From: a virus | Direction: 5' to 3' (one strand) | DNA length: 64,000 bases | IMG/VR virus record: IMGVR_UViG_3300027899_000008 | Part shown: positions 5,630-41,164 of the stretch, piece after piece | How positions within the stretch are numbered: position 1 is the first letter of the stretch | Layout: each line of letters begins with the position of its first letter | Made by a program: the position numbers and the translations under genes | The notes under the pieces: model-generated | Told to the model about the DNA's origin: nothing | Databases searched by the model: none | The model's input: only the letters and a program-made list of their open reading frames with translations

Positions 5630-5630
5630 A

Positions 5631-11634: not shown

Positions 11635-11881
11635 GGGGTTTTATTGTTTGCTTCCATACTCCATCTACAATGAATCCATAAGGTGAAGCTTCATCTTCTG
11701 GAAACTTGGCAACCACATATGGTTTAGTTTTCTTGGTCGTCAGGAGGTCATTCAGTGCCTCGCATTCGGTGACCGCACTAGTCTTCTTTTTGAAGACCAG
11801 AACGCCCCTACGGGGTTCTCCCGAGATGTCTTTCATGTTATCGTCAACAAAGATATTCAGTTTGGTCATAATTCCATACAT
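11627..11881 (-). CDS. Hypothetical protein
   Basis: 84-aa ORF coupled to neighbours; its first codons are duplicated at 12530-12553. Confidence 0.6.
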   Translation of the reverse strand: MYGIMTKLNIFVDDNMKDISGEPRRGVLVFKKKTSAVTECEALNDLLTTKKTKPYVVAKFPEDEASPYGFIVDGVWKQTIKPHV

Positions 11882-11884
11882 TAT
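11861..11884. repeat. 24-bp direct repeat, copy 1 (flanks PEP-CTERM gene)
   Basis: TTTGGTCATAATTCCATACATTAT, identical to 12530-12553. Confidence 0.92.
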
Positions 11885-12519
11885 CGTCGTCTCCGAATCC
11901 CAATCATACCAGCAATCCCGATCAGCGCAAGTGCCGATGGTGCTGGAACGAGCGCGTATTCAATGTTGTCAATGATAATCTGACTTGCGCCATTAGCACC
12001 AACATTAGTAGAATACACCTTGATCTCGGTGATATTGTTCAGAGGACCAGGATATACGGATTGCAGGTTAAGTTTCACCCGCTGTGCAGCAGCAATTTGA
12101 GCAGTGTAAGTGAATACGCCCTCTCCGTATCGGTAGCCTTCAATAATCACAGTCATTGACGACCAAGCGGAAGTCACCTCAAGACTAGACAATCTCCACA
12201 TTTCGTTTCTACTGATTCTGAAATTGTAGGAGGAAGTCGAACCGAACGGAGTAAAGATGGCACGATCACCAATGATGCCCTCATCATATCCACCATATCC
12301 TGGTCCACCGACAAGATCGTAATACCACCACTTGTTTTCGCTAGCAGCATATGAACTGGTGAAGTTGAATCCTTCATAGTTGCTTAGAGGTTCGTAGTAA
12401 AGTCCAAGTGGTGTCGAATAAATATCCGTAAGTGTCGGCGCAGGAAGATTTTCAAAGGTGCAGAGTTCTGCGTGTGCCGAAGTTGCGAGTAGAGTTGTTG
12501 CGATTAGTGTCTTTAACAT
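11881..12519 (-). CDS. Secreted PEP-CTERM-type (PAP variant) exosortase substrate
   Basis: Signal peptide (..SAHA/E); C-terminal VPAPSALALIGIAGMIGIRRRR (motif, TM helix, Arg cluster). Confidence 0.85.
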   Translation of the reverse strand: MLKTLIATTLLATSAHAELCTFENLPAPTLTDIYSTPLGLYYEPLSNYEGFNFTSSYAASENKWWYYDLVGGPGYGGYDEGIIGDRAIFTPFGSTSSYNFRISRNEMWRLSSLEVTSAWSSMTVIIEGYRYGEGVFTYTAQIAAAQRVKLNLQSVYPGPLNNITEIKVYSTNVGANGASQIIIDNIEYALVPAPSALALIGIAGMIGIRRRR

Positions 12520-12529
12520 TTTATTCCTT

Positions 12530-12553
12530 TTTGGTCATAATTCCATACATTAT
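12530..12553. repeat. 24-bp direct repeat, copy 2
   Basis: Identical to 11861-11884; encodes the start of mini-ORF MYGIMTKKE* (12521-12550, minus strand). Confidence 0.92.
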
Positions 12554-12568
12554 TGATATCCTTCAGAA

Positions 12569-12639
12569 CTACCCCGCTTGGATTCGAACCAAGAAAAGAA
12601 GCTCCAAAGGCTTCTGTGATACCATTTCACCACGGGGTA
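12569..12639 (-). tRNA. tRNA-Gln (anticodon UUG)
   Basis: Acceptor stem TACCCCG/CGGGGTA, D arm GTGA-AATGGTA-TCAC, anticodon arm GAAGC-CTTTGGA-GCTTC, T arm CTTGG-TTCGAAT-CCAAG, discriminator G, no encoded CCA. Confidence 0.93.
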
Positions 12640-13179
12640 TTAAAACACATTACTTGCAAGTGCATACATTGCGATACCACTCGCGGTTCCTACATTCAGA
12701 CTTCTGACACTTCCATATTGCTTAATATACAAGATGTGGTCGCAGATGTCAAGAATTTCTGTGGGAATACCAACTTGTTCTTGACCGAATGCTAGAACAT
12801 AATGGGTATTAGAATCCCATTCAAAGGTATCAATCGCCGTAGCACTTGGAACATTATCTATTCCAATCACCTTTAATGTTCCGTAGGTTTGACGAAGAAC
12901 TTTAATTCTATCGTCAAGTTCGGTAAAGGTCTTGGTGTGTAAAAAATTAGTATAATGATGTGTTCCTACAGTGCCACGGCGATCATACTGCTTTGACCCA
13001 TAAAGAATCACCTGCTTCGCAAGAAACGCATTAGCGTTACGAATGACCGTAGCAATATTGAAATCATTATAAAGATTGCTACACACAACGGTAAAATTAT
13101 TCCGTTTGTCTTCAAGGTCAGCAATGATTGCTTCGTGCGACCAGTAGTGAAAGTGGTCAATTATATTCCTTGTCTCCAT
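12640..13179 (-). CDS. SpoU/TrmH-family RNA 2'-O-methyltransferase
   Basis: NIATVIRNANAF, FGQEQVGI and VRSLNVGTASGI SPOUT motifs. Confidence 0.9.
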   Translation of the reverse strand: METRNIIDHFHYWSHEAIIADLEDKRNNFTVVCSNLYNDFNIATVIRNANAFLAKQVILYGSKQYDRRGTVGTHHYTNFLHTKTFTELDDRIKVLRQTYGTLKVIGIDNVPSATAIDTFEWDSNTHYVLAFGQEQVGIPTEILDICDHILYIKQYGSVRSLNVGTASGIAMYALASNVF

Positions 13180-13185
13180 TGGTAT

Positions 13186-13213
13186 ATTATAGCAGAAAAC
13201 TTTACTTTGTCAA
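13186..13213 (-). promoter_or_regulatory. Sigma70-type promoter of the trmH-like gene (predicted leaderless)
   Basis: TTGACA-N16-TATAAT with TGn extension; ATG 6 nt after the -10. The -35 lies in the last codons of gp43A. Confidence 0.8.
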
Positions 13214-14683
13214 TCCCCTACGCTTGAGTTCCGCATTAATTTCCTCTAAATCTTTTTTAGATTCAATCATTTTAGTTTTGAATGTTTTACGCTCTTGATA
13301 CATCGTGTCCATGAGTTCTGGTAAGAATCCACGAATATCCTTACGATAAGTAGTTCCATTGGCAGCAACGGATAGATTCTTCTCCTTGAACTGCTGTATG
13401 AATTTAGCAGCAGGAACATCACCTTTAAGAATAGCATCTGGTGAAATAACACCACGCATGTGATTAGATGTGATTGTCTCTGTGGAAATATTATACTGCA
13501 TTATGAGATGTGGATAAAGCGAATTCAAGTCAAAGGACACAACCCATTTGTGCATTCCAACGAGAGGTTCCTTTACATACGCACCAGCATATTGCTCATC
13601 CTTGAGTCCCTTCTTCTTAGGAGGAATGACAATGTTCTTGTTGCTCAAGTAATTATAGATGATAACATCCCATGTTCGAACCTGTGAGAACACATCCTGA
13701 AAATTCACTCCTGCTGAATACGCAAGTGCTACAGAGAGTTCAATCAGTTTTAGTTTCTCTTCCAATTTCTGAACGAGTTCAACATCTCGAATATTATACT
13801 GAATGAACTTCTGAAAATCCTTCTTGTAAAACTCATTCATACTCTCGTATTCGTCATATGCCAACTTACGCTGACCTAATTCTACATACGCAATATGGTC
13901 AAGTCGATATGATTCCTGATTGACATATGTGAATGCCTTGTAGACTTCAAAGTAATCAAGCATTGCTATGCCAACAATATCATACATCAAGTCTTCTCTA
14001 CCATTACGAGTGACAAACTTCTCCTTGAGAATTCCCCATGGAGAGAGCATCTTGGCAGCCTTGTTGCCAAGAACCTTCTTGACCCGCTTGATGAGATAGG
14101 GAAAGTCAAAGAATCGAATGTTCCACCCACTCACGATGTCGGGATAATTCTTCGCAAAGTATTCAAGAAATTCCTTGAGAAGTTTATCTTCCTCCATGTA
14201 TTCAAATACCTTGATATCCTCATCAGTATTGAATGTTCCAAGACAGAAAGTCGCCTTTCCATGTTTGGTCGATGATATGGTGATTGCGATGATTTCTTCT
14301 TGAGGGTCTTCGATAGAGGGCCATCCTTTTTCCGAAGTAGTCTCAATGTCAATATACATGATATCAATCTGTGAGAAATCATATCCAATATTTGTTCCAT
14401 AATTTTTGTTTATGAACTTATATTCTGCTTGAACATCTCCATGAATCTCAAAATTGGGAACATCAGAATAACTCTTGATGAATTCCTTGTAATCTTGAAA
14501 TGTTCCAAAGAACATCTCAGACATATACTTTCCATCAATAGACTTATGTTTGGTTGGTTTATTTGATGGTAGAAATATCGATGGTTTATACTCACTCCTT
14601 CGGAATGTCTTGGTTCCATCCGAATCTCTTTCAGCAATAAGCATACATTCAAAATTATAGAAAATATTAGTGTAAAATTTCAT
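13202..14683 (-). CDS. gp43: Family B DNA polymerase, N-terminal subunit (gp43A: exonuclease plus palm motif A)
   Basis: ExoI DIET, ExoII NIRFFDFPY, ExoIII YNIRD, motif A SFDLNSLYP; ends after the first fingers helix. Confidence 0.95.
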   Translation of the reverse strand: MKFYTNIFYNFECMLIAERDSDGTKTFRRSEYKPSIFLPSNKPTKHKSIDGKYMSEMFFGTFQDYKEFIKSYSDVPNFEIHGDVQAEYKFINKNYGTNIGYDFSQIDIMYIDIETTSEKGWPSIEDPQEEIIAITISSTKHGKATFCLGTFNTDEDIKVFEYMEEDKLLKEFLEYFAKNYPDIVSGWNIRFFDFPYLIKRVKKVLGNKAAKMLSPWGILKEKFVTRNGREDLMYDIVGIAMLDYFEVYKAFTYVNQESYRLDHIAYVELGQRKLAYDEYESMNEFYKKDFQKFIQYNIRDVELVQKLEEKLKLIELSVALAYSAGVNFQDVFSQVRTWDVIIYNYLSNKNIVIPPKKKGLKDEQYAGAYVKEPLVGMHKWVVSFDLNSLYPHLIMQYNISTETITSNHMRGVISPDAILKGDVPAAKFIQQFKEKNLSVAANGTTYRKDIRGFLPELMDTMYQERKTFKTKMIESKKDLEEINAELKRRGLTK

Positions 14684-15000
14684 TTTGATTTCAAATATGC
14701 TGCGAGAAGAACAGAATAATTAATAAGGTCTTCAAGAGTGTCGTATACGGTTTCATCCTCTACGCTTAATTCCCCTCTACTTGAGAATGATGCTAGTCTA
14801 GACATCTTATCAGTCATGCGAACAAGAAACGCTTGTTCGGTAGAACACACACCAAGTGCTTCCGCACGACGGAAATTAGCAAATGGGTCGTTTCCAACAC
14901 CAGCATAATCAGCATTCTTTTTCTTCATCATAACGAGAGCGGATTCACACATAGTTTCATGTAGTGTAAAAAGTTCTTCACGGGTCATATTATTCTCCAA
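14680..15000 (-). CDS. Nucleotide modification-associated domain (DUF1599/Nmad1-like) protein
   Basis: KKNADYA..DPFANF..RMTDKMSR..DTLEDLINY pattern. Confidence 0.7.
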   Translation of the reverse strand: MENNMTREELFTLHETMCESALVMMKKKNADYAGVGNDPFANFRRAEALGVCSTEQAFLVRMTDKMSRLASFSSRGELSVEDETVYDTLEDLINYSVLLAAYLKSK

Positions 15001-16354
15001 ATAGTCCTTCTAGTGTAGTCGATTTCATTGAAATGTCAAATCCATTCTTTGAAAAACACCAAACATTCTCAATGAATGTTGTAGATAAATGTTGTCTAAG
15101 AGCACCGCTGTCTATATTCTTTGGTCGTTGCTTGATACGCATACCCACTTGACCATCAAATTTTCCACCAAGGGAAACAATATGTTCCACCATCTGGTCG
15201 CAAGCTCTATATCTTTTTGTTTTAATCTGTGGGTCCATTATATTTATCATCATGATTCCATTATCGGTAAGTGATTCGTAACACGCTGTCAACACTGGTT
15301 GAAAGAATCCTGTCCACCACTTATCATATTGCTGATATCGAAACCATGATTGTTTCCAGTCATCTCCACCTTCGTCATATAATTCAGTTGCGAAATATGG
15401 AGGAGAAGTGAAGATACAATCGTATTTGCTTTTCTTGATGATATGTAGAATATCTTCAGCAGGAGCGTTGTATGCTACAACTTCCTTTCCTGATGCTCCA
15501 ATACACTGAAAGGCATCGTAGATATGTCCCTTTACATCAATCTGAAATGTTTTGATTTTTGGTTCACTACCACTTAATGCCTTTTCATATGCGATACATT
15601 GTTCCTTGTATACACGAAACACACTAGGATTTGGGTCAGTGCCAGTATATTTCATAGCAGAAGAGGTATAGAATCCCGCAAGGCGGTCACCCCAACCCAT
15701 GCTGAAATCTAATACAGATTTTAATCCCATCGAATTCGATGGGATTGAGTTTGAAGGAATTCGTGAAAATACGAAGTCGTATATTGTTTTCGCAACATGA
15801 GGTTTGAATTGTGTGGCAACATACGCACCAAGTCTAAAGGAACCACGAATCTTGTTTTGATTGATTCCACGATCCTCCATTCTCCAAAATGTCCAATTCA
15901 TCTTATGAAGAAGGTCTGGAGAATACCAATATTCATTTGGAGAAACAAATCCGTGAGAACCACAATCATATCTGTTTCGTTGCTGAAAGAAATTACTGAT
16001 GTCGTTATGATAATGTCCATAGGATATTACAAACTTACCATATGTGGAATATGGATATTTGTAGTCATTATATTTCTCAACAACCTTACCAGCATCGTTC
16101 ATTATAAACTCAGTAAAACATATCTTTCGCAAATCATTAAATTTATTTTCCATATCTTCCTGTGATATTTTCCTAAATGGAAATATCACAGCGTATCGTG
16201 AGATATATTCTGCGAGTCCGTCTTTAATTTCTTGTTTTGTAAATTTGGAATTTATCTCATCCCAATCATTTCCTCCAACAATTGGTATGCCATCGGCATC
16301 GGCAAACTTATGAAGAAAATTGACCACATCATCTAAAATATTTGGAGTTGACAT
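14990..16354 (-). CDS. DNA amino-methyltransferase (N4-C/N6-A)
   Basis: LDFSMGWGDRL SAM-binding motif and FTSPPYF catalytic motif. Confidence 0.85.
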   Translation of the reverse strand: MSTPNILDDVVNFLHKFADADGIPIVGGNDWDEINSKFTKQEIKDGLAEYISRYAVIFPFRKISQEDMENKFNDLRKICFTEFIMNDAGKVVEKYNDYKYPYSTYGKFVISYGHYHNDISNFFQQRNRYDCGSHGFVSPNEYWYSPDLLHKMNWTFWRMEDRGINQNKIRGSFRLGAYVATQFKPHVAKTIYDFVFSRIPSNSIPSNSMGLKSVLDFSMGWGDRLAGFYTSSAMKYTGTDPNPSVFRVYKEQCIAYEKALSGSEPKIKTFQIDVKGHIYDAFQCIGASGKEVVAYNAPAEDILHIIKKSKYDCIFTSPPYFATELYDEGGDDWKQSWFRYQQYDKWWTGFFQPVLTACYESLTDNGIMMINIMDPQIKTKRYRACDQMVEHIVSLGGKFDGQVGMRIKQRPKNIDSGALRQHLSTTFIENVWCFSKNGFDISMKSTTLEGLFGE

Positions 16355-16869
16355 TATGTTCCTGTGGAACCAAATCCACCATTTCTATTGCTCTTTGATA
16401 TTGGTTTATCTTGTATATATTGTAATATTGCTCTATTATTGAATACCATCTCTGCTTGGGTTATTCTATCTCCATTGTATATTCTTATCTTTTTCATTGA
16501 ATTATTATAGATTGGAATAAAGACCTCTTCGATGTAATCAGCGTCTATTATACCAACAGAATTTATCAAATTCAAGCCCTGTTTTGTAGAAAGACCAGAA
16601 CGAGCATATAATCTTACAGAACAACTAATCGGAATATCAAATATTAATCCAGTTGGAATTAATACTCTCCATTCACTAGGAATTTCAATAAAATTCCTAC
16701 CATCGGAATTCTGAACAACTACCATGCCTATAGCATCATTCGATTTACTGAATCCCTTTATATTTGTTTGATATGAAAGATATGCTGATATATCAAAACA
16801 TGCCGCATGATTTGACCCATATGTTGGATTTGGAACATCTTCGTTTGTTTTATAGATGCGTAGTTCCAT
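16354..16869 (-). CDS. dut: Trimeric dUTPase
   Basis: AACFDI, ARSGLS, GIIDADY, GDRITQ, RNGGFGSTG. Confidence 0.95.
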   Translation of the reverse strand: MELRIYKTNEDVPNPTYGSNHAACFDISAYLSYQTNIKGFSKSNDAIGMVVVQNSDGRNFIEIPSEWRVLIPTGLIFDIPISCSVRLYARSGLSTKQGLNLINSVGIIDADYIEEVFIPIYNNSMKKIRIYNGDRITQAEMVFNNRAILQYIQDKPISKSNRNGGFGSTGT

Positions 16870-16876
16870 ATTAGTC

Positions 16877-17668
16877 TTAAAGTCTTACAATTTGTATTCT
16901 TGTTGCTTTATTGAAATTTGTTGTAAATGTTCCGAGATTGACACTTGCTGTATCTGTAATTGATGTGGCGACAGGACTTCTACATTGAATTGTGAAATAT
17001 TCATCAGCCGCTAAAGCAATGATAGCTGAACCATTTTGGGTTCCAGTTATTGCTCCAGCATCAGTATTAAGTGCTGGTTGAATTAGAAGAGAAGTGAAAC
17101 CATACACATTATTTAATGGAGCATCATTTGAGAGGAATGCTTTTTGAATCCATACACTTTTAGCAGGATTAACGTTTAAGCCTACAGGTCCACTAGGCAC
17201 AACCCAAGTAATCTGATATGTTACCAATAAATACATTATATTGCCAGAATTATTAGTAAATCTACCATTAGTAGTATAGGTTAGATGTGTGTCTGAAATT
17301 GTTTGTAATTCACTATTTGCAAATGTCAGACCGATAGGGATATTAGCAGCTACAGATAAAGTAGCATCAGAATATCTAGATATTATTCCACTAGGAGATG
17401 CTGACACCGAAAGATCATCAACATATGTCTTCAATGCTTTTTGTGTTGGTATTTTGGCATCGGATGGAGTAGTAAATGCGGAATCAATTGTTACTTCACA
17501 TCCAAATGTTATCGCTTGTCCAAATGTATTTCCGATATAAAATCCATAACTTCCTGATCCTGTTAGATTCGCACCAAGTTCGCCAGCAGTCAATCCTGAT
17601 CCAGTACTGACAGAATAATTTCCAGGTTTTGCATTTCCTTGTTTGATTCGTAATATTGGTTTTGCCAT
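16877..17668 (-). CDS. Putative virion fibre/decoration protein (paralog 1)
   Basis: IKQG..LTAGELG N-terminal module, KIPTQKALKTY, C-terminal beta-sandwich ending ATRIQIVRL. Confidence 0.65.
   Translation of the reverse strand: MAKPILRIKQGNAKPGNYSVSTGSGLTAGELGANLTGSGSYGFYIGNTFGQAITFGCEVTIDSAFTTPSDAKIPTQKALKTYVDDLSVSASPSGIISRYSDATLSVAANIPIGLTFANSELQTISDTHLTYTTNGRFTNNSGNIMYLLVTYQITWVVPSGPVGLNVNPAKSVWIQKAFLSNDAPLNNVYGFTSLLIQPALNTDAGAITGTQNGSAIIALAADEYFTIQCRSPVATSITDTASVNLGTFTTNFNKATRIQIVRL
17433..17521. repeat. 89-bp block identical to 18291-18379
   Basis: Direct comparison; encodes GQAITFGCEVTIDSAFTTPSDAKIPTQKAL in both paralogs. Confidence 0.85.
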
Positions 17669-17692
17669 GTTATGTTGCCGATTCTGATAATT

Positions 17693-18547
17693 TTACACTT
17701 TTACAATTTGAATTCTTGTTGCTCTATTGAAATTAGGTATTAATTGTCCAATACCTGTACCAATAGTTGCTGTATTTGTAGTAGTACTAGTAGCAACTCC
17801 ATGATTCTTACATTGAATTGTGAAGTATTCATCAGCCGCTAAAGCAATGGTAGCTGAACCATTTTGTGTTCCAGTTATTGCTCCAATAGTAGTAGAAGCG
17901 ATTGGTGGACATAGAAGAGAAGTGAACCCATAGATATTATCTGCTGTAACAGAACCACTAAATGCTTTTTGAATCCATGCACTTCTTACTATTTCCCTGC
18001 TATTATAAGATCGATTGCTATTAACTCCAGTCCAAGTAATTTGATAACATATCAATAAATTTATTGTACTTGTAGTGTTATTGGTAAATCTACCATTATT
18101 AGTACCAGTACTAGTATAGGTTAGGTCGGCAACGCCAGCGTTAACGGCAAATGTTGATGCAAATTCATCAGATGCAAATAGTTGAGTTGCAATTGCATTA
18201 CTACCTACAGATAAAGTAGTATCAGAATATTTAGACATTATTCTAACGGGAGCGCCAGCGTTTCCAGCTACCGCAGCAATATATGTATTTAATGCTTTTT
18301 GTGTTGGTATTTTGGCATCGGATGGAGTAGTAAATGCGGAATCAATTGTTACTTCACATCCAAATGTTATCGCTTGTCCTAAATTATTTCCAATATAAAA
18401 TCCATAACTTCCTGCTGCTAGATTTGCACCAAGTTCACCAGCAGTTAATCCACTGGTAGCAGTAACTATTCCATTGGTTAGGGTTTGAGTATAAGGTCCA
18501 GGCTTACCACTAATTCCTGTTTTTATTTTTAGTATTGGTTTTGCCAT
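17693..18547 (-). CDS. Putative virion fibre/decoration protein (paralog 2)
   Basis: Tandem paralog of 16877-17668 with identical blocks. Confidence 0.65.
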   Translation of the reverse strand: MAKPILKIKTGISGKPGPYTQTLTNGIVTATSGLTAGELGANLAAGSYGFYIGNNLGQAITFGCEVTIDSAFTTPSDAKIPTQKALNTYIAAVAGNAGAPVRIMSKYSDTTLSVGSNAIATQLFASDEFASTFAVNAGVADLTYTSTGTNNGRFTNNTTSTINLLICYQITWTGVNSNRSYNSREIVRSAWIQKAFSGSVTADNIYGFTSLLCPPIASTTIGAITGTQNGSATIALAADEYFTIQCKNHGVATSTTTNTATIGTGIGQLIPNFNRATRIQIVKV

Positions 18548-18553
18548 GTTAAT

Positions 18554-19393
18554 TTACGTTTCTGATATTTTTACAATTTGAATGCGAATACCCTTTGCAG
18601 CTCCAATTTCTGGATCGTTCACAATATTATTCTGTCCACCTGTTCCAATATCTAACGATAAATCATTCGACCGAATTTGATATACTAACTGCAATTCCCA
18701 TTGATTTACACCACTCACATACTTCGGTAGTCTAACACAAGCATTTCCAGAAATCAAGGTAGGAAGAGATGAAAAAGATGCAGTTCCAATCACTGGAAGC
18801 ACTACCTGCATTCCATAGTATGTAACATTTGCTGTATTTATAGTATCTATGACCCTAAGTCCAGCAAGTCTCCAATATCCAATATTTCTTCCTTCTGGAT
18901 CAATTGCATTACTATCTACTGCCGAAATCTGAAGACTATAAGTTACATTTAAAATCATTTCCGTCTTTGTGGTTTGATAAAATCCAGTAGGATTACCAAG
19001 ATTTGGATCATCTATCTGAAGATTCATATTTGTGGATTTAACTATCACAGCACTACTGAGGTCAATATTCTGTAATGTTGAACTTTGATTTGCTGGATTT
19101 GCAAAAATGGTAGCAAATAAAGTGTCCTTTGGTGCTTGAGGTCCAGCTACAAGTTTTGATGTTATATATTCCTTTGCTGCTTTCTCTGTGGCAATCTTAT
19201 TATCGCTAGTATTTGTTCCACCAAGAGTTATAGCAGTATCGACTTCTGCACCAATAATAACAGCAGATCCTGATGCTATTCCAATATAGAGTCTATTTGT
19301 TGCCAAATCAACACCCAACTCACCAGCAGTGAGTTGGGTGGTTGGGGGGATAATACCTCTTTTTATCTTTACAATTGGTTTTGGTCTTGCCAT
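18554..19393 (-). CDS. Putative virion fibre/decoration protein (paralog 3)
   Basis: IKRG..LTAGELG, DNKIATEKAAKEY, IRIQIVKI. Confidence 0.65.
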   Translation of the reverse strand: MARPKPIVKIKRGIIPPTTQLTAGELGVDLATNRLYIGIASGSAVIIGAEVDTAITLGGTNTSDNKIATEKAAKEYITSKLVAGPQAPKDTLFATIFANPANQSSTLQNIDLSSAVIVKSTNMNLQIDDPNLGNPTGFYQTTKTEMILNVTYSLQISAVDSNAIDPEGRNIGYWRLAGLRVIDTINTANVTYYGMQVVLPVIGTASFSSLPTLISGNACVRLPKYVSGVNQWELQLVYQIRSNDLSLDIGTGGQNNIVNDPEIGAAKGIRIQIVKISET

Positions 19394-19410
19394 AATATAG
19401 AAGTTTCAAA

Positions 19411-24497: not shown

Positions 24498-24504
24498 ATC
24501 ATTG

Positions 24505-24512
24505 TATTTATA
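24505..24512 (-). promoter_or_regulatory. T4-type late promoter
   Basis: TATAAATA just upstream of ATG 24497; gp55 is encoded in the window. Confidence 0.75.
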
Positions 24513-24521
24513 CCATTGGCA

Positions 24522-27893: not shown

Positions 27894-27902
27894 GATATTT
27901 CC

Positions 27903-28532: not shown

Positions 28533-28544
28533 TGTTACCTCTAT

Positions 28545-28814: not shown

Positions 28815-28911
28815 TATTGTTATTTATGTTAAAATTATAGAGCAACTGTTGCAACAAAAGTATCAAGAACGATTTCGAGGTTGTAAAGTTCTGCGTATTT
28901 CATATATTAAG

Positions 28912-30332: not shown

Positions 30333-30335
30333 ATG

Positions 30336-30860
30336 TTACGCCGCTACTTTTTGTTTTTTAACTTTACTTTCAGTAATAGTTTTCTTCAATTCGGAATTTT
30401 CAAATTCAAGAGCAGAACATTTAATATTTAGTTCTTTACTTTCAGCAATAGTGTTCTTTAATTCCGAATTCTCAACTTCAAGAGCAGAAAACCTATTCCG
30501 TAGAATATCATATTCTCCAATAGCATTATTCTTCATCGACTCTTCTCGTACAAATCTATCATTCAGATTGGACATATTCTGTTGCAGTTGATTTAACTGA
30601 TTTACAGCATCGTTTCTGGCAGATGTATACTCGCCAATAGATTTATTGATATTCTCTATATTGAGTTTGAGGTTCTCTATTTGATTGACAAGACCTTCTA
30701 CTTTTTCATTTTCTTGATTTGCAAAAGCCTCAAAGTCCTTTACCTTGTTTTGCTCAATCAATAACTTCGCCTCAAATACAAGGTTTAGACTCAATAAGTC
30801 TTTACACTTCTTCTCTAAGAATGGCAACACGACCTTATCATTATAATTCACTTCTTCCAT
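30336..30860 (-). CDS. Coiled-coil protein
   Basis: Heptad-rich; internal duplication SALEVENSELKNTIAESK / SALEFENSELKKTITESK. Confidence 0.6.
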   Translation of the reverse strand: MEEVNYNDKVVLPFLEKKCKDLLSLNLVFEAKLLIEQNKVKDFEAFANQENEKVEGLVNQIENLKLNIENINKSIGEYTSARNDAVNQLNQLQQNMSNLNDRFVREESMKNNAIGEYDILRNRFSALEVENSELKNTIAESKELNIKCSALEFENSELKKTITESKVKKQKVAA

Positions 30861-30881
30861 TATATACCTCCATAGTATTTA

Positions 30882-32996: not shown

Positions 32997-32997
32997 A

Positions 32998-33318
32998 TTA
33001 GAAAGTCCCTCCGTCTATGTATATGGAACCGAACATTTGAATATCTCCTCCAACATTTAAATTTTCAGAAATTGTTACATTGTTGGGAAGACCAATAACA
33101 ATATTGGGACATATACTTGTTACTTCTATTTCTCCCGTTGTTCCTGTGATTCCGAGTATTCCAGTACAACCATTCAATGAAGTTACATTACCTGTAGAAC
33201 CAACAATAAAATTGGTACTACCCAATGAAGACCAATACGATCCACTCCATATCCACGATTTGGTATCGTAGGAGTAGATTTCATTTGTAGCAGGACTATT
33301 TGGAAAATTAATTGGCAT
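32998..33318 (-). CDS. Small structural protein (MPINFP family; short paralog of 38298-39269)
   Basis: MPINFP head, VTSLNGCTG..ICPN..GLP, C-terminal DGGTF; GATAAATA at 33323-33330. Confidence 0.6.
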   Translation of the reverse strand: MPINFPNSPATNEIYSYDTKSWIWSGSYWSSLGSTNFIVGSTGNVTSLNGCTGILGITGTTGEIEVTSICPNIVIGLPNNVTISENLNVGGDIQMFGSIYIDGGTF

Positions 33319-33336
33319 TTAGTATTTATCTGCAAA

Positions 33337-33639
33337 TTAAATATCAGTTGCCCCAACAAACTCTCCATCAGCAATTGATTTGGCAAACAGATAGGCAGAT
33401 TTTACCTCGTTCATTCCCGCAGCATCAATGATAGCAGGAGCAAACCATGTATCAAAATCAACCACGGGAATGGTTCGTTCATCAAGAGGAATCTTGTTGT
33501 CTATTCTTGCTTGTTCAGAAACATATCCATCCAAAAGAACTGTACCTGTCTTGGCAGTATGATTCAGAGTCAGAGTACGAATCTTCCAATATTGCGAATA
33601 GGTTCCTGTTGGATGTTGAATAATTTGTTGTAGTGCCAT
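33337..33639 (-). CDS. Small tail-associated protein (paralog of 24702-25013)
   Basis: Same motif pattern as 24702-25013. Confidence 0.6.
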   Translation of the reverse strand: MALQQIIQHPTGTYSQYWKIRTLTLNHTAKTGTVLLDGYVSEQARIDNKIPLDERTIPVVDFDTWFAPAIIDAAGMNEVKSAYLFAKSIADGEFVGATDI

Positions 33640-33959
33640 TAGGTTGACTCCAATACTGATACGATGATATCAAGTCCCGCAGTCAATCCTGCTGTAACTT
33701 TGAGTGTGTCTCCTGTTACGAGTGGAATTGGTGCATCAAGTGCTTGGTAGGTTGCTTGAATTGGAACTGCTGCTGCACGAACAATGTAATATCCTGTTGC
33801 TCCCTTGAACAACTGAACAGATACACTATTGGCTAATGTGGTGTTGCTGTTGGCAACATGAATAGCATTCACTATTGCAGTTCCTGTGATTCCTGCATAG
33901 ATTACGGTGGCTGCTGTGACACCGACTGAAGTTGCGTAATTTTTGTATGTGTCTGGCAT
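33639..33959 (-). CDS. Small virion Ig-like adaptor protein
   Basis: IHVAN..VSVQL..L.TGDTLKV..VSVLE pattern; CATAAATA at 33975-33982. Confidence 0.6.
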   Translation of the reverse strand: MPDTYKNYATSVGVTAATVIYAGITGTAIVNAIHVANSNTTLANSVSVQLFKGATGYYIVRAAAVPIQATYQALDAPIPLVTGDTLKVTAGLTAGLDIIVSVLEST

Positions 33960-33983
33960 TAGTATTTCCTTTAATATTTATGC

Positions 33984-34859
33984 TTATGGTGCGGAGGATT
34001 TGTACGGGTGATCGTTGGGAAGATTTGCTTGCAGTCCCCATTTGTGTGCAAGATAACCTTCTGTTCTTTGACGAGTATCTGTTGATACAGTTCCGTCAAT
34101 TACAATCAATTCATATAGATCCATGTTTCCCGCTTCCGTATTTATTGTATTTGCACCCACAGTCCAAACAGATTCCGTGTTTGCCCCAGTATAAACAGAT
34201 ACTAAGTGTGCAACAGTATTCTTTGTTGTTCCATTCGTATAACCAACAACAGAACCACCTGTTCTTATACAAGATATAAACAAATTTGCATTTTGGGTGT
34301 AATTATCAGAGTCTAAGTCAATGGCTCCATTGTTCCATAAACCCCAAGGAGCAAGATATGCAGCAATAGATTGACTTCCAAACAACAATTCAAAGTTTCC
34401 CGCGCTATAGTTTGCTAAAATTGTTCCGTAACCACTTGCTAATTTTGGTTTGTATGCAGCAAAAATACCAAAGTTTGAATTTCCGCTTGTAATCACAGTT
34501 GTGCTTGAAATATCTAGGTTGTCATTTGAACCATCAAATGAGATGATACCATAGCCATTTTGACTATTTGAAGTGTATGTTGGTTGTTGTAGTGCTGTTC
34601 CTTGAGTAGCATTTCTACCGTTTCCGCTCTTGTCGTTCCATTGAGAAACGGTAGTGCTATTAAGAGTGATTGTTGATGCATCTCCTGCATCCAACCAAAG
34701 GGATGTTGTGATTTGTGCAGGTGTCCATGCACCACCAACAGCAACAAACACTCCCAAATCTCTCTCTATGAAATGCTTCAGACTAGGAATGGTTCCTGCC
34801 GCTGTACGGCGTTGATCTGTGGTTCCACAGTATCCTGAATTGAGTCGCCATCTTCTCAT
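33984..34859 (-). CDS. LamG/ConA-like lectin-domain virion protein
   Basis: [34 protein letters not shown]; start at 34859 by ATGA overlap. Confidence 0.75.
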
Positions 34860-37792
34860 GATAAGAACCACCCTCTCTTGAAATCTACAATTGATTCAAC
34901 TGCACCTGTTGCTCCGTTGATGGAGACGACATAATCACCAACTGGTCCTGTTGCTCCTGTGACACCTTGAGAACCTGTAGCACCTGTTACTCCTGTGTTA
35001 CCTTGAGATCCAGTTGGACCTGTAACACCTTGAATGCCTTGAGAACCTGTGGCTCCTGTTGCACCATTTATTCCATTAGCACTAGTTGCCCCCATTGCTC
35101 CAGCATTCAACTCCACCCATATTACCCCCGAATCATCTGTAATAGCAGTATACAATCCACCGTTTGTTGTATTAAACCACATATCTCCTTTGATAGGCGT
35201 AGACGGAGCAGTTATTCCTTCAGAAAAATTAGCACCAACAATAAGTACTACATCTCCAGTTAATCCATTGACTGAAGTTACTGCTGTTATGTTACCTGTT
35301 AGACCATTTATACTCTTAACCACATTTTTGGTGATTTGGTCTTCTACATTGGTAACGGTAGAACTATATTGCCCACCATTAGAGGTATCGTAAAATGTGA
35401 ATTTTAAGGATGCTCCTAGTGTAGATGGAACATCTGTTGGTATTGAAGCTGGTCTGAGTGTATTAAGAAAATTACCAACAGTAATCAATTCATGTACTGA
35501 GTTTGGTTTTCTCTCTACCAGTATCTTATCACTTTCAGATACACTCGTAGTGGTTCCTAATGTTATTCCAGTATATCCAGCAGAGGAATAATCAATTCTA
35601 AATGTATGAGTTATTCCACTCAACGCATAAGATATTCCTGGTCCTCCATACAGATTCTGTATACCAGTTGCACCTCTGTCTCCAGTTGGTCCAGTATTTC
35701 CTGTTGGACCTATTGGACCTGGAACGAAAGAGTCAGCACCAGTTGCTCCAGTTGCACCTGTAGGACCTTGTGGTCCAGCGGAACCTACACCAATGGTAGT
35801 CTTTACATAAGAAACATCTTGTCCCTCATATGAGGTAACAACATCAAAACTCGTAGAACCGCTTACTCTAGCAGCATAAACTTTAAAAACTAATCTATCT
35901 GTTGTTAAAAACGAGAAAGCAGAAGCATATACAACAGTCCATCTAATTTCTGCTTTGGTTTCATTAGAAAAGTTTTCAGAATACCCACTTCGTAGTAAGG
36001 TTTCTGTTCCTGCAAGATCCCTTTTCCACAATTCAAAATTTAATCTTGCAACACCATTATTAGCAGTTTGATATGCATGAATGAGTCTCTCTGCAATGCC
36101 TGTAGGAAGAGATCCTACTCCTGGTTCGCCCACATCAGTTATGAAGGATGCAATAAAAACATCACTAGTGCCAGTGACACTAGTAGTAATACTTGTAATT
36201 GCATTAGGTGATGGAGATGTAACTGCTTTTTTGTATCCTACAACATCAGCAGTTACTCCTGCCCAAAGATAATAGATTCTACCAGCATTTCCACCTGCGA
36301 TTCCTTGAGGACCTGTAGCACCTGTTGCTCCAGTATTACCCTGAATTCCTTGAGAACCAGTAGCACCTGTTGGTCCTATTGGACCTGGAACAAACGAGTC
36401 AGCACCAGTTGCGCCAGTGGAACCAGTATTACCTTGAGAACCAGTAGCACCTGTTGGTCCTATTGGACCTGGAACAAACGAGTCAGCACCTGTTGCACCT
36501 GTGTTACCTTGAATACCTTGAGAACCAGTAGCACCTGTTGCTCCAGTATTACCCTGAATTCCTTGAGAACCAGTAGCACCTGTTGGTCCTATTGGACCTG
36601 GAACAAACGAGTCAGCACCTGTGTTACCTTGAATACCTTGAGAACCAGTAGCACCTGTGTTTCCTGTTGCACCTTGAGAACCAGTAGCACCTGTTGGTCC
36701 TATTGGACCTGGAACAAACGAGTCAGCACCTGTTGCACCTGTGTTACCTTGAATACCTTGAGAACCAGTAGCACCTGTGTTTCCTGTTGCACCTTGAGAA
36801 CCAGTTGCACCAGTTGCTCCTGTATATCCTGTTGCTCCAGTATTACCCTGAATTCCTTGAGAACCAGTTGCACCAGTTGCTCCTGTATATCCTGTTGCTC
36901 CAGTATTACCCTGAATTCCTTGAGAACCAGTAGCACCTGTTGGTCCTATTGGACCTGGAACAAACGAGTCAGCACCAGTTGCGCCAGTGGAACCAGTATT
37001 ACCTTGAGAACCAGTAGCACCCGTAACACCTTGAATGCCTTGATATCCTGTTGCGCCAGTATTACCCTGAATTCCTTGAGAACCAGTAGCACCTGTTGAA
37101 CCTATTGGTCCTTGAACGAAAGAGTCAGCACCTGTTGCGCCTGTGTTACCTTGAATACCTTGAGAACCAGTAGCACCTGTTGAACCTATTGGTCCTTGAA
37201 CGAAAGAGTCAGCACCTGTTGCGCCTGTGTTACCTTGAATACCTTGAGAACCAGTAGCACCTGTTGGACCTATTGGTCCTTGAATGAAAGAGTCAGCACC
37301 AGTTGCGCCAGTGGAACCTCTAGGTCCAGTAGCACCTGTTGAACCTATTGGTCCTTGAACAAAAGAGTCAGCACCTGTTGCGCCTGTGTTACCTTGAATA
37401 CCTTGGGAACCAGTAGCACCTGTTACACCGATTGGTCCTTGAACGAAAGAGTCAGCACCAGTTGGTCCTGTTGGTCCAGTGAAACCTCTAGGTCCAGTGG
37501 AACCTGTTGGTCCTGTTGGTCCCCGAACTGAGGAATCTGCACCTGTTGGACCAGCTGGACCTATAATTCCCTGTGGTCCTTGACCACCCATAGAAGTAAC
37601 ATATAATATAGTGGAAGATGTTACCTTTTCAACAAGAGTATTTGTTGTTGTATTTGGAATTATATTAATATCAAATTCATCTTGATTAGCAACAATAATG
37701 TTAGAAACATTCGCTTGATTTATAGCGATAGAAGAGTTAGTTCCACCAAATGTGGTAATAACCAATACAGCTAAATCGTTTGGCGTTTCCAT
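34856..37792 (-). CDS. Collagen-like fibre protein (978 aa)
   Basis: Long G-X-Y tract rich in GAT/GPT/GNT/GSQ/GIQ with periodic GADSFVP interruptions; globular insert; C-terminal fibre modules. Confidence 0.9.
36290..37590. repeat. Collagen-coding tandem repeat array (approximate bounds)
   Basis: Near-identical nucleotide units such as gaaccagtagcacctgttggtcctattggacctggaacaaacgagtcagcacc. Confidence 0.85.
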
Positions 37793-37798
37793 ATAATA

Positions 37799-38236
37799 TT
37801 ATGTTCTTGTTATTTCGCGAGAAATTTCAAAAGAGCCTTCAATGAGTCTCAGCACTTCGTTGGTAGCAATATTTTTAAGTTCAAGATCGTAGAAATGCTT
37901 ACCCGTTGGAGTATTTTTCATTGTGACATAATCCACTCTCAATAATATTCCACCAGTATATCCTGTAGCGCCAGATGGAGATGTATTAAAACTAATACCA
38001 CCTACACCATTGACTCCATTGATACCAGGAATAAAATCACCTGTCAGACCACCACCAGTTACTCCGTTTTTGGTCAGATACAATATCGTGGAAGTATCCT
38101 TTGAGGATTTGCGAACTTGCATTTCTCCACCAAAGTTTGATAAATCTATACCAGTTGCACCCTTGTATTTGTAATCCAGATGTAATTTGAAAGTTGTTCC
38201 TTGTTCGGCATAAATATCGTATCTTGCTGCTGGCAT
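37799..38236 (-). CDS. Virion fibre-anchoring Ig-like protein
   Basis: YDIYAEQGTTF..IDLS....MQVR..YDLEL..RLIEG.F....EIT pattern; CATAAATA at 38260-38267. Confidence 0.65.
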   Translation of the reverse strand: MPAARYDIYAEQGTTFKLHLDYKYKGATGIDLSNFGGEMQVRKSSKDTSTILYLTKNGVTGGGLTGDFIPGINGVNGVGGISFNTSPSGATGYTGGILLRVDYVTMKNTPTGKHFYDLELKNIATNEVLRLIEGSFEISREITRT

Positions 38237-38297
38237 TTATATCTCCTATTTTTCTATTGTATTTATGATAAAGAAAAAAATTATATAAATGTCAGAG

Positions 38298-39269
38298 TTA
38301 AAATACTCCCCCATCTATATTTCCATAATAATTACCACCAACATTTAAATTTCCAGTTATAGTTACATTGTCAGGAAGTCCCAATGTTAGGTTTGGACAA
38401 ATCTTTGTGATTTCTATTTCGCCACTGGTTCCTGTAATTCCAATAGCACCTGTACAACCATTTATGCTGGTTACTTTTAGTGGGTCCACCAACTGAGTCG
38501 GTAGATCAACCATCAACCATTTCTGCGCGGCATGATTGAATCTTATTACCTTACCATCGCCACCAGGACCATATTCTGATTCGGTGTCTATATTGACATC
38601 AAATAGTTCGTAAAGAGATTGAGGGCCTGTTGGTCCAGTTGGTCCAGTTGGTCCTAATGGTCCCACATATCCAGTTGGTCCCATTGGACCAATTAAATCA
38701 GATCCACCACCAAAGGAAACCCATTGACCAGTTTGTCCAATAGGGTCGTGGTCGTTGACAAATGTAAAAAGGAAAGCATTAGAGCTATCAACCCATCTAT
38801 GACCCACTCTTGGATTACTAGGTGCTGTCAATCCAAATGTGAATTCTGGATCAGTGGTATTCTGACATACCATCTTCCAGGCATATCCATTGTATAACCA
38901 AATTCGCGAATCATACTCGTAGGTGTCTCCAATACATTCGGTATTTGGAAAATCTATGCCAGTGAGTCCAGAACTACCACCACCATATGTGGGACACCCA
39001 TATCCTATCTCTATCCAATGACTCGTCTGATTAACATCCTGAATGTATGTGTATTCTACAGCATCATTCAGATGAAACCATTTATCACCAGTATCTGCTC
39101 CTGTTGGAGCAGTGATACCAATGATATATTTTACATTACCAGTTAATGTGACATTGACGGATCCAGATGCGCCTAGAAAACGCCATCCTAATCCGTCAAA
39201 TGCCCATAATCTATTTTCCGAAGAATAAGTATCACCAGATTGAGGTTGCGGGGAAACTGGAAATCCCAT
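38298..39269 (-). CDS. Modular structural protein with short collagen tract
   Basis: Two FP..W...G..W modules, two G.RW/KW modules, GPT repeats, C-terminal DGGVF. Confidence 0.65.
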   Translation of the reverse strand: MGFPVSPQPQSGDTYSSENRLWAFDGLGWRFLGASGSVNVTLTGNVKYIIGITAPTGADTGDKWFHLNDAVEYTYIQDVNQTSHWIEIGYGCPTYGGGSSGLTGIDFPNTECIGDTYEYDSRIWLYNGYAWKMVCQNTTDPEFTFGLTAPSNPRVGHRWVDSSNAFLFTFVNDHDPIGQTGQWVSFGGGSDLIGPMGPTGYVGPLGPTGPTGPTGPQSLYELFDVNIDTESEYGPGGDGKVIRFNHAAQKWLMVDLPTQLVDPLKVTSINGCTGAIGITGTSGEIEITKICPNLTLGLPDNVTITGNLNVGGNYYGNIDGGVF

Positions 39270-39301
39270 TAAACATCATATCCTATCAGTAAACAAGGAA
39301 T

Positions 39302-40528
39302 TTAGCGACTAGCCTTTTCCTTCTTCTTATATTTATGATTTTTAATTACAGGATTTTGATTGGGAATATTTTGCGTAAAGGTTTGTTGCGGATACTGAGA
39401 TTTCATGTTTTCAGAAATTGTTTCCATTATCTTGCGATATTGATTGAAATTTTCCTGAACTCTAGGAATTTCCGTTGGAGGAATCTTTCCTTCATCAAGA
39501 AGACGCTTACAAGCAAGATATCCAAGTTCTGGTTTTCCAGCATAGAATGCGCTTGCTCCGACTTCATCTAGACATGCGTAATCATAAATCGCATTGGCAA
39601 CAAAGAGAATGTCATCCTTTGGAATAGGAATCTCAGCAGCTGCTCTAGCAAATATGAATGCTGCTGCTGGCATGTTGAATTTAGTTCTGAGCACCTGAGC
39701 AATGTGATACAGGGGTTCAGCACGAATTGGTCTAGAGTTATATGCGTCGATGAAGGATGCCTGTACCTCAGGCCACGGACGATCCAGCATTGCTCTAGCG
39801 ATTGCTATTCGATACAACGAATAATATATCTCTTCTGCCCATCCGCCCATCTTAGCTCTCTTCAGATAAGAGTCAATCGCCTTTTCCCACTGCTGTGAGT
39901 CAAAGTAGGATTGTGCTAGATAAAATTGATATCGTGTGTTTTCTGGTTCATCAATCAATGCTGCTTCAAGCATTTCAGCATCTTTGGTATATTTTTCAAC
40001 AGGAGTGATTCCAAGATTCCTATTACCAAGAGTTCTCGCATTTAGAAAATAATCACCCTCAATCTTCATCATTACTGGTTGTGTCTTGATAAGAGATGCT
40101 GGAAATTCATGAAGAACTCCACGATACTCCCATTGAGAATCAATCTTAAAGATTTGTGTTCTCCACCAAGAAAACTCTGGTCTTCCCATACGAATAATGT
40201 ATGCGTCTGCTTCCATGACCGCAGGAAACTTGAAATTTCCCTCAATCTTGTCATCAGCGTCAATCACCCATGCGTAGTCTGCCTTGCCATCACAATGACG
40301 AAGAGCAACGGATCGGTTGTGTCCAAATCCCTTCCATTCATCTTGATGAAGTTCTCCAGGAATTCCCTTCTCAGCAAAGAACTTGGTGATTAGTTCCTGA
40401 GTTCCATCAGTGGAACCTGTGTCAGAGATGACCCAGTAGTCGATAAGTGGGGCAACAGATTCAAGACACTCATGAATGATATGAGTCTCATTTTTAACGA
40501 TCATACACAATGTAATTTTTGGTTTCAT
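39302..40528 (-). CDS. GT2 glycosyltransferase with TPR-like C-terminus
   Basis: LCMIVKNE, DTGSTDGT, FGHNRS, IDADD, GVLHE, RYQFYLAQSY. Confidence 0.9.
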   Translation of the reverse strand: MKPKITLCMIVKNETHIIHECLESVAPLIDYWVISDTGSTDGTQELITKFFAEKGIPGELHQDEWKGFGHNRSVALRHCDGKADYAWVIDADDKIEGNFKFPAVMEADAYIIRMGRPEFSWWRTQIFKIDSQWEYRGVLHEFPASLIKTQPVMMKIEGDYFLNARTLGNRNLGITPVEKYTKDAEMLEAALIDEPENTRYQFYLAQSYFDSQQWEKAIDSYLKRAKMGGWAEEIYYSLYRIAIARAMLDRPWPEVQASFIDAYNSRPIRAEPLYHIAQVLRTKFNMPAAAFIFARAAAEIPIPKDDILFVANAIYDYACLDEVGASAFYAGKPELGYLACKRLLDEGKIPPTEIPRVQENFNQYRKIMETISENMKSQYPQQTFTQNIPNQNPVIKNHKYKKKEKASR

Positions 40529-40533
40529 ATTAT
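40449..40533. repeat. 85-bp direct repeat, copy 1 (5' end of GT2 gene)
   Basis: 81/85 identical to 41073-41157. Confidence 0.9.
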
Positions 40534-41048
40534 TTTATCCAATACCACACATGATTTTTTGTTTCTTTTATTGTTTTACCAACACTAAAAGCAAATTCAT
40601 TTACAGCACGATTCACACCTTCTATACCAGTATAATCATGACCAGAAAAAATGCCACCACTTTTTATCTTTGAATAATAATTTTTACAATCTTTCAATAC
40701 CTGTTCATAAGTATGTAGTCCATCTATAAACATGAAATCATATTCATCATTAGCAAAATCCATACATGCATCATCTGAAGTTTTGTTAATTAAATTGAAT
40801 CGCGATCCAAACTCTTTCATTCGTTCAATGACCATTTGTTTTTGATTTAAGTTAAATGAAACATGATGTCCGTGCCAATCTGTATATTGCATATACGGGT
40901 CAACTGAATTTATAATAATATCTTCTTTGGTTTTTAACAAAAAAAAAGTAGTATCACCATCAAGACATCCAATTTCTATTCCTCTTGGATTATTTTTGTC
41001 TTTAAGCAATTCACCTAAACCATATCCAGGAACATGTTCAAAATTCAT
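40530..41048 (-). CDS. Class I SAM methyltransferase (Methyltransf_24-like)
   Basis: IEIGC..G, FIDGLHTYE, GGIFSGHDY. Confidence 0.85.
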   Translation of the reverse strand: MNFEHVPGYGLGELLKDKNNPRGIEIGCLDGDTTFFLLKTKEDIIINSVDPYMQYTDWHGHHVSFNLNQKQMVIERMKEFGSRFNLINKTSDDACMDFANDEYDFMFIDGLHTYEQVLKDCKNYYSKIKSGGIFSGHDYTGIEGVNRAVNEFAFSVGKTIKETKNHVWYWIK

Positions 41049-41152
41049 TTAATCAACCTTTCTACTAACAGGGGGGCAACGGATTCGAGACACTCATGAA
41101 TAATATGAGTCTCATTTTTAACAATCATACACAATGTAATTTTTGGTTTCAT
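41045..41152 (-). pseudogene. Truncated duplicate of the GT2 gene 5' end (35-aa mini-ORF)
   Basis: MKPKITLCMIVKNETHIIHECLESVAPL then LVERLIK*; its TGA overlaps the ATG of 40530-41048. Confidence 0.85.
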
Positions 41153-41164
41153 ATTATATACCTT

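Follow-up and report, generated by a model that had tools for sequence, protein, structure and literature searches.

The DNA analysed here is a 64,000-nucleotide (nt) stretch of the virus record IMGVR_UViG_3300027899_000008 from IMG/VR (hereafter, the window), a 64-kb sequence with one coding strand, the minus strand, on which 73 open reading frames (ORFs) were called. Its gene content is that of a T4-like myovirus, with a split gp43 DNA polymerase and with UvsX, UvsY, UvsW, gp41, gp44/45/62-like, gp46/47-like and RegA genes, and it also carries collagen-like fibre genes and a 12-kb glycan-gene island of low G+C content. No close relative was found among published phage genomes (INPHARED), where the best match reaches 66% DNA identity over the polymerase only; the nearest sequences come from freshwater metagenomes. 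The subject of this work is two places in the window, locus 1 and locus 2, at each of which a pair of direct repeats encloses one minus-strand gene. The repeat of locus 1 is 24 nt long and 100% identical between its copies (11861-11884 and 12530-12553, spacing 669), and that of locus 2 is 88 nt long and 94% identical (40446-40533 and 41070-41157, spacing 624). Each is present exactly twice in the window, their sequences are unrelated to each other, and, collagen-like and paralogue repeats aside, there are no other high-identity direct repeats in the 64 kb. By an arithmetic estimate, about 1e-5 exact 24-mer pairs would be expected by chance in a sequence of this length. We refer to the enclosed genes as Y1 and Y2, and to the genes whose starts are duplicated as X1 and X2.

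Locus 1 lies within the split polymerase gene (10480-14683, minus strand), between its N-terminal half (13202-14683) and its C-terminal half (10480-11634). The insert that separates the halves, whose content varies among relatives, consists of a SpoU methylase gene (12640-13179), a tRNA gene and locus 1. The tRNA, tRNA-Gln(UUG) (12569-12639, minus strand), ends 15 nt upstream of the repeat and is not part of it. The upstream repeat copy, ATAATGTATGGAATTATGACCAAA (12530-12553, minus strand), comprises the end of the native X1 leader and the first seven X1 codons. Behind the ribosome-binding site of X1 (AAGGA-N8-ATG), this copy opens a mini-ORF, MYGIMTKKE* (12521-12550, minus strand), in which X1 codons 1-7 run into foreign sequence and whose stop codon lies 1 nt before the ATG of Y1. 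Y1 itself (11881-12519, minus strand) encodes a 212-aa secreted protein with a PEP-CTERM sorting domain (TIGR02595 at 18 bits against a cut-off of 16, with a weak Pfam match), and has a G+C content of 46%, compared with 36-39% in the flanks. Its stop codon TAA overlaps the ATG of X1 (TAATG) within the downstream repeat copy (11861-11884, minus strand), and X1 follows (11627-11881, minus strand) as an intact 84-aa gene of unknown function that is conserved before the C-terminal half of gp43.

At locus 2, the left neighbour is a GT1-like glycosyltransferase gene (41165-42046, minus strand). The upstream repeat copy (41070-41157, minus strand) starts at position -5 of the native X2 leader, extends through codons 1-28, and lies behind the native ribosome-binding site (RBS) region of X2. 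A GAAGG RBS precedes the resulting 35-aa mini-ORF (41045-41152, minus strand), which has X2 codons 1-28 followed by LVERLIK*, overlaps the Y2 ATG with its TGA, and is annotated as a gene on two contigs. Y2 (40530-41048, minus strand) encodes a 172-aa class I S-adenosylmethionine-dependent methyltransferase (Methyltransf_24), and its G+C content of 29% is like that of the glycan island. In the downstream copy (40446-40533, minus strand), the TAA stop of Y2 lies in the ATAATATG leader of X2, so that TAA-T-ATG leads into X2 (39302-40528, minus strand), an intact gene for a 408-aa GT2 and TPR glycosyltransferase. All five mismatches between the two 88-nt copies are synonymous third-position changes, an outcome with P about 0.004-0.012 if one copy had drifted neutrally. 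Because every one of them is synonymous, the two copies appear to be alleles of functional X2 genes.

The initial annotation of this DNA had described a single layout for both loci, namely an RBS, the start of X as a mini-ORF, a new gene Y, a stop codon inside the repeat and an intact X, and this layout is exact at both. It was also correct that both repeats begin with ATAAT on the coding strand, and that integrase and transposase genes are lacking: a Pfam scan of 70 of the 73 minus-strand ORFs in the window detected no integrase, transposase or recombinase besides UvsX/RecA. The genes for homologous recombination that it had named were located as UvsX (9426-10487), UvsY (63474-63908), gp46-like (57060-58790) and gp47-like (59515-60576), and UvsW is present as well.

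For comparison we used related loci from IMG/VR (given L numbers below) and whole contigs (G numbers). Since the relatives were sampled around the genes of the two loci, they constitute a biased genome sample, for which five whole contigs partly correct. The single-gene insertions at gene starts that had been proposed do have empty counterparts, at locus 1 in L001 and L005 and at locus 2 in L113. In L001, whose flanks are 98-100% identical to those of the window, SpoU, tRNA-Gln and X1 are accompanied by one 24-mer and no Y1. Apart from two adjacent bases (ATATCAATAATG versus ATACTAATAATG), this empty site matches the sequence to the left of the upstream copy in the window. The difference between L001 and the window is exactly the cassette, and the same is true of L005 and L006, which are about 97% identical, yet only L006 bears the cassette. 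L206-L211, with flanks 93-98% identical, share the structure of the window. In a second lineage (SpoU 87%, X1 83% and gp43 C-terminal half 81% identical), the cassette occurs in L006, L204 and L205 and is absent from L002, L004, L005 and L007. In all, filled alleles occur in three flank lineages and empty alleles in two of those. Judged from these alignments, locus 1 is a true presence/absence polymorphism.

The cassette is also more similar between lineages than its surroundings are. It is 96.4-98.6% identical between lineages in which SpoU, X1 and the C-terminal half of gp43 are at 81-88%, Y1 is 96-99% identical across diverged lineages, and lineage-specific differences begin at most 6 nt from the repeat on both sides. 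The junction CCAAA|AAGGAATAAAATG within the mini-ORF is common to L006, L204 and L206-L211. Since this junction is shared and cassette identity exceeds flank identity, we conclude that the junction arose once. Furthermore, the kinship of Y1 alleles disagrees with that of the flanks: L006 and L204 have flanks 98-99% identical and Y1 at 97.5%, whereas L206 and L006 have flanks at 80-88% and Y1 at 98.6%. Y1 alleles are therefore decoupled from their flanks. From this pattern, the locus 1 unit has evidently been swapped and lost repeatedly through the repeat. The cassette has moved between diverged lineages with both boundaries in the repeat, which fits homologous recombination through the duplicated gene start.

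Other sequences bear on the older history of Y1 and X1. The empty sites of L002, L004, L005 (5983-6003) and L007 keep the last 15 nt of Y1, TCGGAGACGACGATAA (RRRR-stop), directly before the X1 ATG, and this remnant appears to be the footprint of an older, non-homologous deletion of Y1. L203 shows CGGAGACGACG to be the tail of Y1 itself, since there it has quite other surroundings. The X1 of L102 is only 50% identical, yet Y1 runs straight into it via CGACGATAATGTAC, with the same tight junction as in the window, CGACGATAATGTAYGG; this locus gives no view of any duplication. Because the tight Y1-X1 junction is present alongside so divergent an X1, it must be old. The exact locus 1 junction was found in IMG/VR in the L006 contig only.

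At locus 2, relatives allow a reconstruction down to the nucleotide. X2 is the conserved last gene, or right-hand anchor, of a variable glycan-gene island, and its upstream neighbour changes by lineage; its ATG normally follows a TATAAATA-like box and an AAAGGA RBS. A duplicated X2 start was present in none of 80 IMG/VR relatives, and an exact search of IMG/VR for the locus 2 junction tail did not find it. Among phages in which X2 is 96-98% identical there are three arrangements, which we call A-type, B-type and window type, the last seen on three long contigs. The A-type locus L113 (X2 at 96.5% DNA identity) has GT1, an FkbM-type methyltransferase gene, the leader and X2, with no Y2 and no duplication, and its leader and X2 upstream region equal the left flank of the window's upstream copy. 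The B-type loci L194-L199 have an epimerase gene, Y2 and X2, and their Y2-X2 junction, TGGATAAAATAATATG, is identical to that of the window. This tight junction occurs without duplication throughout L194-L202, with the Y2 stop already inside ATAATATG. The window has the order GT1, leader, X2 codons 1-28 (...GCCCCCCT|GTTAGTAGAAAGGTTGATTAA), Y2 and X2. Between its upstream copy and Y2 is the segment CCTGTTAGTAGAAAGGTTGATTAA (41049-41072, minus strand), the last 24 nt of a donor-type epimerase gene. In L194-L199 the epimerase end, ...ATGCCTGTTAATAGAAAGGTTGATTAA|ATG (the ATG being the start of Y2), is the same sequence with one mismatch and the shared CCT, and this CCT (41072-41070) is the microhomology with X2.

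Compared in this way, the window is the left side of an A-type locus joined at CCT (3 nt) to the last 24 nt of a B-type epimerase gene. A single misaligned crossover between genomes of these two types would suffice for the whole structure of locus 2. The stop codon in the repeat and the ATAAT boundary are inherited at this locus from the Y2-X2 junction of the donor, and are not products of insertion. Six sites of the 88-nt repeat vary relative to A- and B-type relatives; their alleles are shuffled in the population and assign the event neither to a circular nor to a linear route. As a separate observation, the window at 41165-41200 is without the 205-aa FkbM-type methyltransferase gene of L113 (3300-4000), and the last codons and stop of GT1 in the window correspond to intergenic DNA in L113, which is another non-homologous junction of the island.

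We consider it likely that both loci are scars left when co-circulating variants of a single T4-like freshwater phage population recombined out of register, by microhomology or illegitimate recombination. Of the two parents, one would have carried Y immediately upstream of X, with a tight stop/start junction and the Y stop in the X leader, and the other would have had no Y at this place. The Y-less parent would have been joined within X, at codon 7 in locus 1 and at codon 28 in locus 2, to the Y-carrier just upstream of the Y RBS. The product would have X's own translation start, a stump of X as a mini-ORF ending at the Y start, then Y, and an intact X with the donor junction, and selection would retain products in which all genes and translation signals are intact. 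The new direct repeat would make the insertion reversible, in that homologous recombination by UvsX, UvsY and gp46/47 could delete Y, and the same machinery could carry the repeat-Y-repeat unit into another genome having X. T4 is known to recombine readily at microhomologies of 6-10 bp (PMC9391042). For locus 2, comparison provides both parental arrangements and the exact junction, and for locus 1 the empty and filled alleles and the horizontal spread. That the joining occurred between co-infecting genomes, the nature of the locus 1 donor, and the recombination intermediate are what we infer from these, and the origin of locus 1 is reconstructed by analogy with locus 2. The initial annotation had allowed for ordinary illegitimate recombination as a fallback; this is the better account of origin.

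Several points weigh against the reading of both loci as misaligned recombination scars. No relative had the donor arrangement for locus 1, with a near-identical Y1 (MLK start, AAGGAATAAA leader) in the absence of a duplication. Nor was a locus 1 donor having the AAGGAATAAAATGTTA leader without an upstream X1 stump recovered among them; they supplied only the recipient type (L001 and L005) and, in L102, a distant tight Y1-X1. The donor breakpoints are close to the Y ATG (for locus 2, 24 nt upstream; for locus 1, no more than 16 nt), whereas breakpoints placed at random would tend to leave more of the gene that precedes Y in the donor. This closeness may be due to chance, selection or trimming, and two cases cannot separate these from a boundary-directed process. 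Finally, the two crossovers of the transfer at locus 1 both lie within a stretch of about 30 nt, for which a single crossover with a circle is a somewhat better explanation.

If the insertions reflected a general mechanism aimed at gene starts, more examples might be expected, and the initial annotation had suggested a genome-wide search for them. We scanned related loci (1.18 Mb), a further set of loci (0.54 Mb) and 652 kb comprising the window and five whole related contigs (759 ORFs) for direct repeats with a length of at least 18-20 nt, an identity of 90% or more and a spacing of 60-4000 nt, using simple longest-ORF gene calls. With repeats within genes and between paralogues removed, this roughly 2 Mb of related phage DNA yielded no further clear case of an X stump, one gene and an intact X. 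Other boundary duplications were found, and some of these involve gene 3' ends. In L212 (315-1040; contig of 70,949 bp), from an unrelated phage with PolA and a T7-type primase-helicase, Y1 is 97% identical at the DNA level over 620 nt and is flanked by an exact 20-nt repeat, ATGAAGAGGAGACACTATGA, made up of the last codons of the upstream gene and an ATGA overlap. (Y1 also occurs at 93-97% amino-acid identity in at least two further contexts, L203 and L213-L215.) In contig G001 (IMGVR_UViG_3300027754_005993; 82000-85300), a duplicate of about 260 nt of an epimerase 3' end (84378-84689) flanks a two-gene insert; it forms a 103-codon ORF ending ...YNYWKVK, a scar of the same kind at a gene end. 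Such 3'-end duplications in L212 and G001 are accommodated because out-of-register crossing-over predicts them.

Contig G002 (IMGVR_UViG_3300037493_003077) has an exact 20-nt repeat, CAATTATTGGAGAATAAAAT on the coding strand (46989-47008 and 47521-47540), around one Methyltransf_24-like gene. The repeat is read in two frames, as the C-terminus of two different genes, and may represent a further single-gene boundary duplication; the history of the sister contig G001 is more complex. Two other kinds of repeat occur at gene starts. In G001 (1-8000; loci L218 and L005), seven consecutive, otherwise unrelated genes begin with the same 30-40 nt, encoding MKSFKQ(Y/F)ITE. Single genes lying between identical gene starts are thus known from this phage group. 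This is probably an array of internal-protein genes, as its shared start resembles the T4 capsid-targeting sequence (CTS). In G003 (IMGVR_UViG_3300023174_000064; 140900-145250), GGTACAATACACACATGA, a -10-like box with a start codon, recurs 4-5 times between small genes and looks like PeSL-type units of promoter and gene start. Overall, boundary duplications are common in these phages, at either edge of a shared gene. Because other boundary duplications involve gene 3' ends, the process is not specific to gene starts.

The strongest competitor is the one that the initial annotation had put forward, in which mini-circles consisting of Y and one copy of the X start integrate by a single UvsX-mediated crossover. 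As the main route of spread, and possibly as the origin, we regard it as improbable, but it has real points in its favour. In three flank lineages, the segment transferred at locus 1 has the 24-36-nt repeat as its limit at either end, a result that a single crossover with a circle gives automatically. Empty sites exist, the window encodes the recombination proteins, and in RB49 and phi1 circles of 1-2 ORFs between repeats have been detected by inverse PCR (PMC2839356). Assembled contigs, however, cannot show circles, and homologous double exchange or copy-choice in the repeat leads to the same product. As an origin, mini-circles require two events, illegitimate circularisation and integration, against one misaligned crossover at locus 2, and they sit poorly with the absence of a further clear gene-start case in the scanned relatives.

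We also considered events confined to one genome, either a target-site-like duplication or a tandem duplication with partial deletion, followed by drift of the copies. The final structure does resemble an insertion that produced a long target duplication, the two copies at locus 1 do not differ, and tandem duplication with internal deletion could yield the structure of L006. This explanation is nevertheless very improbable, as it must contend with five out of five locus 2 mismatches being synonymous, with a Y2|X2 junction inherited from genomes in which a complete epimerase gene lies upstream, and with Y1 alleles that are decoupled from their flanks.

A dedicated site-specific system, integron-like or an integrative element, that recognises an ATAAT core at gene starts or a tRNA appears a shade more improbable still. 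It would account for the ATAAT at the start of both repeats, for the stop codons of both inserted genes inside the repeat, and for the proximity of the locus 1 repeat to a tRNA (15 nt). The boundary, however, differs by lineage: in L006 and L204 the repeat is 36 nt long and starts with TCGGAG, 12 nt further upstream, and at locus 2 the ATAAT belongs to ATAATATG, the native leader of X2. An ATAAT-bounded mechanism, whether general or integron-like, is thus not supported. In the window, ATAAT lies near the start of 8 of the 73 genes, and TAATG overlaps occur at 12 of the 73; we therefore rejected ATAAT as a signal. Repeat lengths of 20, 24, 36 and 88 nt, and the lack of an integrase or transposase in the 70 ORFs scanned, also speak against such a system. 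Integration linked to a tRNA was rejected in the same way, as the repeat contains no tRNA sequence and begins 15 nt past tRNA-Gln, a different tRNA precedes it in L006 (in this lineage a tRNA-Leu intervenes between tRNA-Gln and the repeat), and no integrase was found in the ORFs scanned. The four repeat copies formed no hairpin, in that their single-strand DNA folds were no more stable than shuffled controls (z -1.2 to +0.4), and an attC-type hairpin was dismissed. PeSL-type motifs were likewise set aside, since there is no promoter-terminator structure in or beside the repeats: promoter matches in or near them were weak (9 of 12) and at background frequency, and no terminator-like site was present in or beside them.

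That the structures are chimeric joins of two strains is hardly credible: although the window is from a metagenome contig (MEGAHIT k141, 146,851 bp) and strain variants do co-occur, the joins made by a de Bruijn assembler are in register, through k-mers common to both sequences, and cannot arise at a 3-nt microhomology, the 24- and 88-nt repeats are shorter than k = 141, and the loci are no assembly artefacts because locus 1 recurs on at least eight contigs from separate samples and the locus 2 arrangement on three contigs of 50-200 kb.

Homing by an endonuclease was rejected as well, since Y1 is a PEP-CTERM protein and Y2 a methyltransferase, and the only HNH gene in the window is a free-standing one elsewhere (3259-3897). 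Double-strand breaks may still have contributed, given the HNH and GIY-YIG genes in the gp43 insert of relatives. The HNH gene of the window separates two pieces of a B12-dependent ribonucleotide reductase (2604-5629), the larger of which has a weak intein-domain match. Near the recombination genes, a SET-domain protein gene (58787-59518) lies between the gp46-like and gp47-like nuclease genes.

The gap between the gp43 halves (10480-14683 in the window; also L002, L006, L008-L011 and L093-L102) is hyperplastic, with a different content in every lineage: SpoU, 1-3 tRNAs, HNH and GIY-YIG endonucleases, a metallophosphatase, PEP-CTERM genes and many small ORFs. Small ORFs in L093 (4128-4835), L203 (163-2440) and L096-L100 encode coiled-coil ERDEARR and C-terminal GWDC(F/Y/H)K(E/D) motifs. 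Their junctions follow a loose GGAG-N-CAC-ATGA pattern, and in L093 the ends of two successive genes carry a 48-nt repeat. Over its first 46 residues, the C-terminal half of gp43 in L102 (1506-2671) shows 98% identity to that of the window, and over the remainder 78%, a pattern that looks like a gene-conversion tract; a GIY-YIG endonuclease gene adjoins this half. In the window, a perfect sigma-70-type promoter (TTGACA, 16 nt, TG-TATAAT) lies at 13186-13213, inside the end of the N-terminal half and just upstream of SpoU.

Together, the two loci document the natural gain of accessory genes by a T4-like phage with unusual completeness. Y1 and Y2 both concern the cell or virion surface, which fits the rapid turnover of such functions. 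The short duplications left by misaligned recombination are more than debris, as they render a new gene reversible and portable, and recognising them should be useful for reading hyperplastic regions in phage metagenomes and strain-level differences in gene content. More speculatively, and we would give this less credence than the mini-circle route itself, Y together with the first codons of its neighbour X might act as a self-addressed module, which leaves as a circle or is copied and enters any co-infecting phage bearing X via general recombination enzymes. If such modules were frequent in T4-like phages, duplications of gene starts and ends would amount to an integrase-free, homology-addressed cassette system, and this could explain Y1-like genes at 97% identity in unrelated phages.

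The known system nearest to these loci in its working principle is that of the PeSL cassettes and PeSL mini-circles found in T4-type phages (Arbiol et al. 2010, PMC2839356; Comeau et al. 2014, PMC4122927). There too, indels of 1-2 ORFs in hyperplastic regions are bordered by short direct repeats, which terminate at the Shine-Dalgarno sequence and start codon of the gene that follows. Homologous recombination between these repeats deletes the ORFs and may re-insert them, and no dedicated recombinase is involved. The close relatives compared here likewise differ by the ORF between repeats (L001 and the window, L005 and L006). However, PeSLs are a family of shared motifs, with a promoter and a stem-loop terminator, at many gene boundaries, whereas the repeats described here are locus-specific duplicates of a coding 5' end, made by the insertion and lacking a promoter-terminator structure.

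The microhomology duplications and deletions of T4 (Srikant, Guegler and Laub 2022, PMC9391042, and earlier T4 studies that it cites) are similar in being out of register and in keeping one copy of the microhomology, which at locus 2 is CCT. Those events are intragenomic amplifications under laboratory selection; here, in contrast, the exchange would be between natural variants of different gene content, adding a gene and leaving a short duplication. T-even internal-protein (CTS) arrays, in which unrelated genes share their first 30 nt or so (PMC3012670), resemble the array in G001. Each copy in a CTS array is the functional N-terminus of a full gene, whereas the upstream copies in the window are dead stumps of 9 and 35 aa. 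In the older literature, CTS repeats mediate shuffling.

Phage mosaicism has been explained by homology-facilitated illegitimate recombination and by 'illegitimate recombination plus selection'. Our reading of the two loci as misaligned recombination scars shares with these models an exchange that is anchored at one end in the shared X and non-homologous at the other, from which only products expressing all genes survive. What these models do not predict is a later role of the scar as a handle for recombination, by which the gene passes from lineage to lineage as it has at locus 1. Like an integron, the loci add promoter-less single genes at a fixed place, drive their expression from upstream and leave the neighbours undisturbed; unlike an integron, they have no IntI, attC hairpin or attI, their repeats are variable, and the address is homology to the neighbouring gene. 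We conclude that these loci are a new instance of the known recombination-driven gene flux in hyperplastic regions of T4-type phages, and not a new kind of element.

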